Shown here: piece after piece, positions 16,792 through 21,248 of the stretch | Numbering within the stretch: the stretch's first letter is position 1 | How the letters are laid out: every line of letters starts with the position of its first letter | Origin: a virus | Lineage: Duplodnaviria; Caudoviricetes | Virus record (IMG/VR): IMGVR_UViG_3300042997_000098 | Location: 1-26,810 of that record | DNA length: 26,810 bases | Strand: one strand, 5' to 3' | Position numbers and translations under genes: made by a program | Notes under the pieces: model-generated | What the model saw: the letters and a program-made list of their open reading frames with translations, nothing else | Databases searched by the model: none | What the model was told of the DNA's origin: nothing

Positions 16792-17544
16792 CTAAACTTT
16801 TTGATATTGAGAAATACTTTTGAAAATTTGATAAGCTACCTGTGGCACTATTGCATTTCCGTAGGCTTTGATTGATTGGTTTCTCCATTTAGAAAAGGTT
16901 TTAAAGTCCAATCTTTGGGAAATCCCATCATCTCTTCTAAGTATTGGGGGTTGAGAAGGGAATGCGGAGAAATCCCTTTTCTCAAAAGATAGCCTACAAT
17001 GTGTAGCCTTTTCATTTGACTTGGTGGGAATGTACTGTTTGTAAACTCTTGAAGTGTCGGAGTGGGCAATAAACCAAATTCGGTCTCTCCTGTGTGGTGT
17101 GCCAACGGCACAAGCTGGAAGTAAAAACGGGAGGACTTCGTAGCCTTCAATTTCCAAGTCAGACTGCACCTCGTCGAATACCAATCCCCCGTTCCAATTA
17201 GTAAGTCCGCGAACGTTCTCGCCCACAACCCAACTCGGTTGAATTTCCCGAATTGCTCTAAGCATTTCCGGCCAGAGGTGTCTCTCATCTTCTTTGCCAA
17301 GTCGCTTTCCTGCACTTGAATAGGGTTGGCAAGGGAATCCACCGCTAAGGATGTCGATTGCTCCTCTGTGAATAGAGAAGTCTGTTTTGGTAATGTCATT
17401 GTAAGATATTGATTTTGGGAAGTGATGTTTTAATACTTTTTGTCCAAAGGTATTCCATTCACAATGAAATACGTTTTCCCATCCGCACCATTCTGCTGCT
17501 AAATCAAAGCCACCTATTCCGCTAAATAAACTTCCATGTCTCAT
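16792..17544 (-). CDS. C5-cytosine DNA methyltransferase, alpha polypeptide
   Basis: Motif I SLFSGIGG, IV GGFPCQPYS, VI ENV, VIII PHRRDRIW and X YGNAIVPQV. Motif IX is absent from this frame. Confidence 0.92.
   Translation of the reverse strand: MRHGSLFSGIGGFDLAAEWCGWENVFHCEWNTFGQKVLKHHFPKSISYNDITKTDFSIHRGAIDILSGGFPCQPYSSAGKRLGKEDERHLWPEMLRAIREIQPSWVVGENVRGLTNWNGGLVFDEVQSDLEIEGYEVLPFLLPACAVGTPHRRDRIWFIAHSDTSRVYKQYIPTKSNEKATHCRLSFEKRDFSAFPSQPPILRRDDGISQRLDFKTFSKWRNQSIKAYGNAIVPQVAYQIFKSISQYQKV
16848..17399 (-). CDS. Nested beta polypeptide of the C5-MTase (carries motif IX)
   Basis: The alternative frame lies wholly inside the MTase gene and reads LLPTP...LNPQYLEEMMGFPKDWT. Confidence 0.75.
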   Translation of the reverse strand: MTLPKQTSLFTEEQSTSLAVDSLANPIQVQESDLAKKMRDTSGRKCLEQFGKFNRVGLWARTFADLLIGTGDWYSTRCSLTWKLKATKSSRFYFQLVPLAHHTGETEFGLLPTPTLQEFTNSTFPPSQMKRLHIVGYLLRKGISPHSLLNPQYLEEMMGFPKDWTLKPFLNGETNQSKPTEMQ

Positions 17545-18299
17545 TTGAATGTGGTTTTGTTTTGTATAATTTGTTCCTCAAAAAATAAAGCTACTGCTAC
17601 TGCTCTGGCTTGGTTCTTTAACCATTGTTCAGTCCACTCGTCTCGGTATTGCTTTGCGCTGATTATATCCATTTTATTAGCCTTGTAGGTAATGATTTCC
17701 ATTAGTTTCTTTTTAGCAAATGCTCCGTCTTCTTTTGACCAAGTCTTAATGCCAGAATTATGCAGCTTTGTAAATACTGATAAAGGGTTAAACAATCTGT
17801 CAAAAGTTCTATTTTCTAGAACCTTATATTCCTGATAACTGTAATCAATTATCTCTAAATCAGTCAAATGTGGTATTGCTTGTTCTCGTTCCTGTGGCAT
17901 CATTTTTCTTACTTCGTTTGCTTTTTTCTTGTATCTATCCATAACCTGACTAAAATAAGCCGGGCTAAAATTTTGATAATGGTCTATGAAGTCATTAGCT
18001 ACCATTTGCTTAAACGCTACTTTAACCTCGTTTATTGTAAAGCCACCGTATTCAGTCCTTATCCAATCCTCTAAAATTGCTAACTTAACTTCGCCGGGAT
18101 TGTTAATGCCTACAAGCTGCATCAAATAAATAAGGTTTTGGTTAAATATGATAGAGTTTAGATTCCGGACTCTCTCCCCCGAAAATGCGGTCATAATCTC
18201 CTGCTCCGTAGGAAGTAGAGTAGATAAAGTTGTAGTTTTTAAGGTTTTCGAGTTCGTGCTTATCAAGTTTTCGTTGATTATTTGAAGTTCCTTTTGCAT
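17541..18299 (-). CDS. Replication protein, putative helicase loader/inhibitor
   Basis: Overlaps the initiator gene by 158 nt. Contains the helical motif FTINEVKVAF...HYQNFSPAYFSQVM. Function is inferred from position. Confidence 0.5.
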   Translation of the reverse strand: MQKELQIINENLISTNSKTLKTTTLSTLLPTEQEIMTAFSGERVRNLNSIIFNQNLIYLMQLVGINNPGEVKLAILEDWIRTEYGGFTINEVKVAFKQMVANDFIDHYQNFSPAYFSQVMDRYKKKANEVRKMMPQEREQAIPHLTDLEIIDYSYQEYKVLENRTFDRLFNPLSVFTKLHNSGIKTWSKEDGAFAKKKLMEIITYKANKMDIISAKQYRDEWTEQWLKNQARAVAVALFFEEQIIQNKTTFK

Positions 18300-18930
18300 A
18301 TTGTTTAGCGTTTGTTATCCAATTATTTACTGCGTGTGTCCAACTTTTCATAGGGTTCTTACCTACTCTCCACCCGTTGCTCGTGTAGTAATTTACAAAT
18401 TTTTCTGCTTCTACCTTAGCTTGTTCTGTTCCTATCCGGATTGCCATATATTCGTAAACCTCTTCAAAAGTACATTTTGAATTTGTATTTTCTGCAAGTT
18501 TTTTCTTTACCATTACCTTATCCTTATCCATATCCATTTCCTTATCCATATCCATAGCACCATATAAGGGGCTTACAAGGGGCTTAAATTCGTCATCTAA
18601 CAAATTGTATTTTTGTAAAATTTTGATGATTCCTCCGTGTGCTTTGTTGTCTGGGTTAAGTCCGCTTGGATATTGAAAATCGATAAAGGAAGGTATATAC
18701 CATTTATTTCCGTTATCAATCCTTACCAGCTTGTCTCCAAAAAATTTAACCGCGTCTTGTTCGTTAATATCCTCGCCTATTCTTATTCTGGCTACATCAA
18801 TATCTACCTGCCAGATTCCTGCGTGGTCGCAGTCATCACAGATGTAAAGCCATAAAAGTTTGTAAGGTGCTGATAGTTTACGAATAAAAGGTTTTTTCCA
18901 TTTCTCCGTGTCTGTAAATCGTTTAGCCAT
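18142..18930 (-). CDS. Replication initiator / replisome organiser
   Basis: N-terminal KRFTDTEKW...KLLWLYICDDCDHAG wHTH-like domain, MDMDKE low-complexity linker, and C-terminal AEKFVNYYTSNGWRVGKNPMKSW. Confidence 0.8.
   Translation of the reverse strand: MAKRFTDTEKWKKPFIRKLSAPYKLLWLYICDDCDHAGIWQVDIDVARIRIGEDINEQDAVKFFGDKLVRIDNGNKWYIPSFIDFQYPSGLNPDNKAHGGIIKILQKYNLLDDEFKPLVSPLYGAMDMDKEMDMDKDKVMVKKKLAENTNSKCTFEEVYEYMAIRIGTEQAKVEAEKFVNYYTSNGWRVGKNPMKSWTHAVNNWITNAKQYAKGTSNNQRKLDKHELENLKNYNFIYSTSYGAGDYDRIFGGESPESKLYHI
18516..18586. repeat. Short direct repeats inside the initiator gene (candidate iterons)
   Basis: TCCTTATCCATATCCAT twice (18-nt period, at 18521 and 18539) and AAGGGGCTTA twice (11-nt period, at 18566 and 18577). 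Confidence 0.6.
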
Positions 18931-19020
18931 AAAAAAATAAACCCCGATAGCTGCGAACTATCAGGGTTATTATTATTTAACCACTAAACACATAGGCGGT
19001 TCGCAGTTCGTCTATGTGTC
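18931..19020 (-). promoter_or_regulatory. Structured 5' leader: two hairpins with complementary loops plus U-tract
   Basis: GACACAUAGACG-AACUGCGAAC-CGCCUAUGUGUU and AACCCUGAUAG-UUCGCAG-CUAUCGGGGUU-UAUUUUUUU-AUG. Confidence 0.75.
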
Positions 19021-19031
19021 TTTTATATCTG

Positions 19032-19039
19032 CAAATATA
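19032..19039 (-). promoter_or_regulatory. TAnnTTTG -7 box (TATATTTG) for the replication operon
   Basis: Exact consensus match, in the gap directly upstream of the structured leader. Confidence 0.65.
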
Positions 19040-19041
19040 CA

Positions 19042-19470
19042 CTAAATCTCTTTAAGTTCTAATTTTATACAAAGTTTTTTTAGCTTTGTTTTAAACCAAT
19101 CCTCAGTTTCAATTAGGTTATTCGCTTGTTTTATGTTATGGATAGCAGTTGTGTGGTCGCTTGTTCCTGTGTACTGGCTTATCTCTTTAAGGCTCAACTT
19201 AGTGTACCTTCTAAGTAAATAAGCAGCAGCTTTGCGACCGAACGTTGTTTTTAAGCTCCTATCCTTTACCAGAACATCGCACTCAAACTCTTCGTCTACC
19301 AATTTGACAATCGTTCTTGCACCAATGTCTAAACCCAAAGGCTCGTTATCTTCTATGCCTAACAACCCTAACTGCTGCATCATTTCATGAAGCTGTAAGT
19401 GTGTGTTGCGTTGCGCATAATAAAGCTCCTTTAACTGTCTTATTGATATATCTCTTTTTCTAGTTAGCAT
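19042..19470 (-). CDS. DnaA C-terminal (domain IV)-like DNA-binding protein
   Basis: RKAAAYLLRRYTKLSLKEISQYTGTSDHTTAIHNIK matches the DnaA signature R..AMYL.R..T..SL.EIG..FG.RDHTTV.H. Confidence 0.8.
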   Translation of the reverse strand: MLTRKRDISIRQLKELYYAQRNTHLQLHEMMQQLGLLGIEDNEPLGLDIGARTIVKLVDEEFECDVLVKDRSLKTTFGRKAAAYLLRRYTKLSLKEISQYTGTSDHTTAIHNIKQANNLIETEDWFKTKLKKLCIKLELKEI

Positions 19471-21214: not shown

Positions 21215-21248
21215 CAAATATACAACAATACACAATATAAAGTGCAAA
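21215..21248 (-). promoter_or_regulatory. Early promoter TTTG-N22-TATATTTG
   Basis: Bacteroidota -33/-7 consensus at the head of the early operon. Confidence 0.7.

Follow-up and report, generated by a model that had tools for sequence, protein, structure and literature searches.

A putative kissing-loop attenuation leader in front of replication genes of Bacteroidota phages

The replication locus and its leader

The window, that is, the whole 26.8-kb stretch of phage DNA analysed here, carries on its minus strand a gene of 262 codons (18142..18930) that is likely to encode a lambda-O-like replication initiator. The assignment was based on short tandem repeats inside the gene (18510..18556; repeat families D3, D5, and D7, possibly origin repeats), on the likeness of the C-terminal half of its product to a DUF1376-type protein encoded behind an identical leader (56% identity over 114 aa), and on the overlapping gene that follows (17541..18299, minus strand), a candidate helicase loader by its position, with a weak match to a PHROG of unknown function. 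The initiator gave no Pfam match and no fold match (model pLDDT 59.8, no PDB match), and the atlas suggested 'replisome organizer' at 0.93, on a low shared count. The gene upstream (19042..19470, minus strand) encodes a protein with a DnaA C-terminal HTH domain (PF08299, E 1.9e-11). Further along the minus strand, a 183-aa ORF (16848-17399) is nested, in another frame, within a 250-aa cytosine methylase gene (16792-17544).

The upstream gene ends 2 nt before a promoter box, TATATTTG (19039-19032, minus strand), which was assigned as a -7 box of the Bacteroidota type by the consensus TAnnTTTG. The motif TTAG lies at -33 spacing relative to this box (19062-19059, minus strand). In relatives, the box is kept as TATATT[TC]G, and TTG occurs at a spacer of 17-21 in 16/41 cluster representatives, the commonest spacer being 20. 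A second TATATTTG box (21215-21222, minus strand) heads the early gene block and has similar upstream letters, with no kissing hairpins.

On the minus strand, read 5' to 3', the box is followed by hairpin A (19021-18986), composed of a 10-bp lower stem, a conserved 1x1 A.C mismatch (19011/18996), a 2-bp upper stem, and a 10-nt loop (19008-18999) with 2 unpaired, 7 kissing, and 1 unpaired nucleotides. The kissing core of this loop, CUGCGAA (19000..19006), is complementary to that of hairpin B (18968-18940), a terminator-like hairpin of 11 bp, including a U-G pair, in which the core UUCGCAG (18957-18951) makes up the entire 7-nt loop. An A/U-rich linker of 17 nt (18969..18985) separates the two hairpins, and a U-run (18939-18931; 7 U in 8 nt) leads from hairpin B directly to the initiator ATG (18930). 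Re-reading of the minus strand placed both hairpins, the box, the U-run, and the ATG where the original prediction had put them. The only ATG found between the box and the initiator start in the window lies inside stem A, so that no leader peptide was recognised.

Folding of the leader gave z = -4.1 on the minus strand and z = -3.7 on the plus strand, with 0/200 shuffles as low on either strand, and a kiss detector run across the whole window returned this leader as the only site. Hairpin B, with its G/C-rich stem and U-run, was picked up by a terminator scan as an intrinsic terminator; at least 6 U in 8 nt follow hairpin B in 38/41 representatives, a figure partly built into the scan pattern. 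A search for expression yielded contig-level runs of small share, and four of the ten, when aligned, gave patchy coverage. Hairpin A starts a median of 4-5 nt past the promoter box, and stem B ends a median of 11 nt before the ATG. The linker is near-invariant in the window's subfamily, even in loci that were collected through protein homology. The minimum-energy fold predicts that, in a read-through RNA with a closed hairpin B, the linker base-pairs with the U-run and the start codon; the kiss would be expected to prevent such pairing.

Loop pairing, strand, and geometry

Close relatives were collected with a scan anchored on the linker and blind to both loops, which yielded 119 loci, 117 of them with both loops readable. 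The cores, of six loop types, were exactly complementary in 115/117 loci, compared with 22 expected by free assortment, and loops were mismatched in the other two. In an alignment of the window with 37 of 60 distinct variants (38 rows), the seven kiss pairs were paired in 99.2% of cells with no G-U, five of the seven changed on both sides, and sliding the partners out of register cut pairing to <40%. These analyses revealed that the loop complementarity is preserved in homologues through compensatory change, the check proposed when the loops were first described as exact reverse complements. That description stood, but the 8-bp kiss claimed with it did not, the conserved kiss being 7 bp: the eighth pair, which uses the closing G of hairpin B, is never doubly changed and is unpaired in 4/38 rows. 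The mismatch in stem A had been read as a G-U pair of the plus strand, but it is unpaired in 38/38 rows, with the variants A.C, A.A, or G.A, and is thus a conserved internal loop. Among stem-A/stem-B site pairs of the close relatives, 30/74 failed the four-gamete test, which indicates crossovers or recurrent changes across the linker between the two stems.

Beyond the close relatives, two loop-blind viral scans were run with patterns that specified only the promoter box, terminator end, and ATG, a match being at least 6 bp. Matched loops were found in 58/95 and 31/86 distinct viral leaders in which both loops could be defined (another 6 and 18, with undefinable loops, lie outside these totals), compared with 1.4% of 8838 and 1.2% of 7290 non-cognate control pairs in the first and second scan, respectively. 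The first pattern, run on cellular genomes, gave 3/75 matched, one of them convincing (45/120 undefinable). The pattern itself required the U-run and GGG in the scan-derived loci, and the closing-pair rule allowed sense G-U. A chance origin of the loop complementarity was ruled out by these scans and by the excess in close relatives; judged from its sequence pattern, the leader is a real, widespread RNA element.

In 114 elements (41 clusters), 43 different cores were counted, and the core holds 4 G/C in 30/41 representatives, as if its strength were tuned. Some core base bias was present (G1 in 29/36, U2 in 34/36), although the window's subfamily does not share it. Such a bias is one of two points in favour of a small-molecule riboswitch of the guanidine-IV (GGAM-1) design, the other being the common topology, in which the loop of a first hairpin kisses the loop of a terminator hairpin. 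In the published accounts available to us, however, guanidine-IV has a highly conserved ligand-binding sequence and occurs mostly in Firmicutes before guanidine exporters, whereas the leader occurs in Bacteroidota phages before replication or nuclease genes, its loops vary freely, neither conserved nucleotides of that kind nor sugE-type downstream genes were found, and it has no Rfam match, which leaves a riboswitch extremely improbable.

The strand on which the element acts was assessed from wobble pairs. Among 114 elements, G-U outnumbered A-C on the sense strand both in stem B (100:1) and in stem A (56:20); the ratios among the 41 representatives were 20:1 and 23:6, respectively. The closing-pair rule slightly favours sense G-U in these counts. 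This bias points to the sense RNA as the functional molecule. Hairpin B was stabler on the sense strand in 51/58 subfamily variants, while for hairpin A the sense strand was better in 26/58 and the antisense strand in 32/58, and in the window hairpin A folds at -16.7 kcal/mol antisense vs -11.5 kcal/mol sense. The proposal that hairpin A ends an antisense RNA found no support: the antisense TAnnTT[TC]G box was absent in 112/112 close relatives, antisense promoter boxes in the 41 representatives numbered 2 vs 1.4 expected in the leader and 1 vs 4.2 in the next 100 nt, and a U-run lies behind antisense hairpin A in 5/41 representatives only.

These counts bear directly on a control logic of the I-complex plasmid type, in which the kiss would activate expression and would be blocked by an antisense RNA that covers hairpin A and starts at a phage-specific promoter within the linker. 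I-complex rep control operates at the level of translation and depends on a leader peptide as well as on an antisense RNA. The plasmids (ColIb-P9 repZ, IncB/K) resemble the present case in the loop pairing in the rep leader, where loop letters could define specificity groups, and in the portions of the literature available small loop differences separate compatible IncK groups (PMC10724649). Antisense hairpin A has the same loop as hairpin B, scores as a terminator in the window, and is there the more stable form; the near-invariant linker of the subfamily and the kiss devoid of G-U also agree with such logic. Nevertheless, neither a host-type antisense promoter nor a leader ORF was seen, antisense boxes are not enriched, U-runs are rare, and most variants form no plus-strand pair at the mismatch. 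The linker motif was also not above chance elsewhere in the window (3 matches at <=3 mismatches vs 1.4 expected, by which the linker was rejected as a repeated late promoter). Taken together, this makes the I-complex logic clearly unlikely.

Additional pairing partners were sought as well. No extra loop copy was found at a shared place in five genomes and the window, and a third pairing site was at or below the non-cognate background in the 41 representatives (near the start codon, 1/41 each way), by which a three-site layout of the P4 CI or P1 C4 type was rejected. The result near the start codon also weighs against purely translational control, in which hairpin B would rarely terminate and the kiss would decide the unfolding of a start region free of a Shine-Dalgarno sequence. 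The short distance from stem B to the ATG, a predicted fold that buries the start region, and, in the portions of the source available, the tuning of Bacteroidota initiation by mRNA structure (PMC6847099) agree with it. The U-runs of 5-7 in 8 nt after hairpin B in loci found by homology (L001, L010, L040, L048, L057, L072, and L076; L051 was mis-folded by the script) speak against it, and we consider translational control alone distinctly unlikely. The same source reports that Bacteroidota hosts have no Shine-Dalgarno sequences, so that sequestration of such a sequence does not apply.

The spacing of the two loops is narrowly kept. With 34-62 nt allowed in the core-gap scan, the gap between cores was 38-46 nt in 59 leaders found by protein homology (about 42, near-constant), and the arm lengths of A and B were anti-correlated (rho -0.36, P 0.02); the near-constant gap and the pairing of long A with short B arms fit an interaction in cis. 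According to a crude helix model, 16/41 representatives need >6 Å per linker nucleotide to hold both stems and the kiss, and in these the kiss and both full stems could not coexist. The window's subfamily needs about 3.7 Å per linker nucleotide in the same crude model, so that kiss and full stem B could coexist there. Long-B stems of some subfamilies (L086, L089, L458, L488) carry AGUA/GAA or tandem G.A internal loops, presumably akin to loop-E motifs, which are absent in the window's subfamily. The linker of long-A subfamilies (L106, L116, L126, L542) contains a small GGUU...AACC hairpin; the corresponding hairpin in the window (18965-18983) would overlap the base of stem B.

Distribution, downstream genes, and loop types

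The initiator-homology set comprised 80 loci, 76 with enough upstream DNA, and the leader was found by script in 59/76 and by eye also in L047 and L049. A Cro-like gene abuts the initiator in 14 loci, none of which (0/14) carries the leader, and one locus (L079) has neither. All eight cultured-phage loci examined have the leader, four detected by script and four by eye where the minimum-energy fold differed: Flavobacterium phages tooticki6-1, lillamy9-1, elemoC_14-1A, and 11b, Cellulophaga phages phi18:3, phi19:3, and phi13:2, and Olleya phage Harreka_1. Initiator homologues from approximately 400 Bacteroidota genomes had no leader (0/7). The covariance model R1 picks up other subfamilies weakly (E about 1e-3 to 0.6).

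Several other records were noted during these searches. The only cultured match to the N-terminus of the window's initiator (58%) is L572 (ON968456, 'Pseudanabaena phage Pan5'), which is without a leader and whose recorded cyanobacterial host may deserve a check. A kiss of swapped polarity, CCAUCAC/GUGAUGG, occurs in the large phage contigs L459 (92 kb), L474 (147 kb), and L532; the gene behind this leader is unannotated, and its sole phage-record match is from human faecal samples. In gut-type contigs (L084, L093, L096, L098, L101, L115, L183), a different conserved leader comprises the box, GCAGTGC..., GGTTA.ATGCTC, and the terminator end; it had no Rfam match in L084 and presumably resembles C4-type antirepressor leaders.

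In relatives, too, the leader heads the replication operon, immediately ahead of its first gene, in keeping with the position before the initiator noted for the window. In a set of 49 downstream ORFs chosen to span scan-found leaders, 32 belong to replication-type families (13 DUF6291; 12 HTH_36, O-like, or DnaD-like; 3 Lin1244_N; 3 primase types; 1 DUF1376), 7 encode HNH or GIY-YIG nucleases, and 10 are without a family match. At least three unrelated N-terminal domains follow an identical leader, namely the window type, DUF1376-like, and Lin1244_N (window 18142-18930; L321, L341, L360), with the C-terminal half common to the window and DUF1376 types. In the complete 34-kb relative G002, the recognisable genes lie on one strand and include portal, terminase, and maturation protease (28 ORFs scanned).

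The leader lies 4-25 nt before whichever ATG comes first. Nuclease genes (HNH or GIY-YIG-like) are inserted exactly after the U-run in 23/113 subfamily loci (L004, L016, L027, L047, L057, L058, L069, and others), where the leader sits ahead of the new first ATG; this insertion hot spot may help to shuffle leader types. That the element keeps to the operon's first ATG even with a nuclease gene inserted also argues against a structure at the DNA level, with single-stranded hairpins or cruciforms at an origin. Folding on both strands and the position beside a replication gene would suit such a structure, but an element that begins a few nucleotides past a promoter box and ends in a U-run makes it highly improbable.

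On a tree of the upstream gene (61 distinct rows), the six loop types are widely dispersed, with 31 changes against a minimum of 5 and a shuffled mean of 37.5, indicating that the leader is exchanged as a cassette. The counts per type (17, 13, 10, 9, 9, 3) are more even than neutral (F 0.196 vs 0.39, P 0.003) in a test that assumes one neutral, unstructured population, while the loci come from many samples, re-sampled viruses, and a linker-anchored choice. The even frequencies are, as a sequence pattern, a lead for balancing selection such as exclusion alleles would show, and not proof of it.

They bear on a purely cis reading, in which read-through would be fixed or timed, either by kinetic competition between kiss and terminator or by a Rom-like protein of the phage or the host that stabilises the kiss, with no RNA acting in trans. 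The near-constant gap, the arm compensation, the rarity of mismatched recombinants, the lack of a second loop copy at a shared place in five genomes and the window, and the HTH gene just upstream agree with cis dosing. It leaves 43 cores in 114 elements and six evenly frequent types unexplained, however, each core change costing two mutations, and we regard it as rather unlikely to be the full account.

A tyrosine integrase was found in 1/38 leader-bearing metagenomic records and in 3/8 cultured carriers, and hence the leader is not tied to lysogeny. ParA or resolvase was detected in none of the 36 leader-bearing metagenomic records searched; with integrase lacking in 37/38, there is no evident need for copy control of the plasmid kind. 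A strict link between the leader and the lack of integrase was rejected, as leader and integrase occur together in G007 and in three Cellulophaga phages, and integrase is also missing from two complete records of the Cro type. These two records of 67 kb (G040 and G041; loci L059 and L061) have a Cro-like gene before the initiator and no tyrosine integrase, ParA, or resolvase, and G041 has inverted terminal repeats.

Proposed mechanism and relation to known systems

The leader is likely an RNA switch that limits the amount of replication protein, as its sequence pattern suggests, and the loop-loop kiss is likely to oppose full closure of the terminator-like hairpin B and thereby to permit transcription and translation of the replication genes. 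In the first step, loop A, made first, would catch loop B as it emerges from the polymerase, and the tethered kiss would strain the linker and hinder the base of hairpin B, so that the polymerase would read through and the start codon would be left accessible; without a kiss, hairpin B would close, and transcription would stop at the U-run or the start codon would stay masked. By analogy, this cis step is probably correct. It would act on translation as well, given the dependence of Bacteroidota initiation on mRNA structure (PMC6847099). In guanidine-IV, the available parts of the published work report that a kiss with the terminator loop hinders terminator closure sterically and that the effect fades as the terminator stem lengthens (PMC7736828, PMC11611296). 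In the second step, released leaders of approximately 95 nt with both loops would become more abundant as genome copies increase and would pair in trans with loop A or loop B of nascent transcripts. The cis kiss would thereby be blocked, the supply of initiator would come under negative feedback, and co-infecting phages that share a loop type would interfere with each other. The whole model, cis kiss with trans feedback by terminated leaders, is put forward tentatively, at somewhat less than an even chance.

The covarying kiss, the sense G-U bias, the near-constant gap, the arm anti-correlation, and the tuned core strength would support the cis part, and the six loop types scattered over the neighbour-gene tree at even frequencies would support an effect in trans. 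Since neither ligand-type conservation nor an antisense promoter was found, the terminated leader itself would be the simplest specific input, and it would account for loop codes that are both diverse and even in frequency. Against the model, the geometry of the window's subfamily could let the kiss and full stem B coexist, released leaders kissing internally could not act in trans, hairpin A by itself does not tell the strands apart in the subfamily (sense better in 26 variants, antisense in 32), and the scarcity of integrase, ParA, and resolvase genes gives little reason for copy control as in plasmids.

Short same-strand leader RNAs that act in trans on their own transcript are reported, in the portions of the source available, for P4 CI RNA (seqA/seqC) and Gifsy-1 IsrK, and in phage P4 the CI RNA stops transcription of replication genes (PMC4825925). 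There, CI RNA is processed and pairs with two flanking sites, and IsrK pairs with a downstream ORF and activates, whereas the present leader offers just its two hairpin loops, shows no third site, and mostly occurs without an integrase. The IsrK precedent, and the presence of both loops on the short leader RNA, would allow released leaders to turn on read-through or translation at high copy number or multiplicity; yet such cooperation would favour a common type, while the types are even, and no target beyond the two loops was found in the genomes and representatives searched, so that trans activation is very unlikely. In the pT181/pIP501 systems, attenuation uses an overlapping antiterminator helix and a countertranscript. 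The terminator directly before rep is shared with the present leader, in which neither of these two elements was found.

The expectation that the leader belongs to no Rfam family was borne out, with 0 matches in the window and in 16 loci (Rfam 15); in 20 further loci, Rfam 15 gave nothing on the leader at E <= 0.5, and the best local match in the window was the trpB motif (28.7 bits vs a cut-off of 59). In the published literature searched, no description of the leader was found. Fremin et al. 2023 (PMC10690425) list anonymous viral candidates, DNAVirus_187, 4859, 704, and 4653, with no kiss, mechanism, or terminator call in the parts of that work available; these are mostly freshwater and lie <=25 nt from DUF1376, DUF4373, HTH_36, or Phage_rep_O genes, DNAVirus_187 being 49 nt long. 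Judged from the listing, they share downstream gene families with the leader and may be pieces of its family, in which case it would already be catalogued. New from the window are the 2+7+1 subfamily, the evidence for recombination and evenness, and the cultured carriers. Compared with the known systems, the leader is likely a kissing-loop attenuation variant absent from Rfam.

The element heads replication operons of Bacteroidota phages from lakes, sea, and gut, whichever initiator family follows. If the model is true, switching by competition between a kiss and a terminator would extend past guanidine-IV to a ligand-free setting, and the cultured carriers make it directly testable. It is possible, albeit doubtful, that the leader is a self-sensing RNA lock-and-key of mostly non-integrating phages, in which the terminated leader would be both by-product and regulator, counting genome copies without an antisense gene or a repressor protein, and in which the 7-bp code would be kept polymorphic by frequency-dependent selection because same-code phages shut down each other's replication. 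The leader would then replace a Cro/CI-type switch, and none of the 14 initiator loci with an abutting Cro-like gene carries it. Natural loop pairs are candidate orthogonal regulators for Bacteroidota, and the leader may represent an RNA-based copy-number and exclusion system in repressor-less phages.
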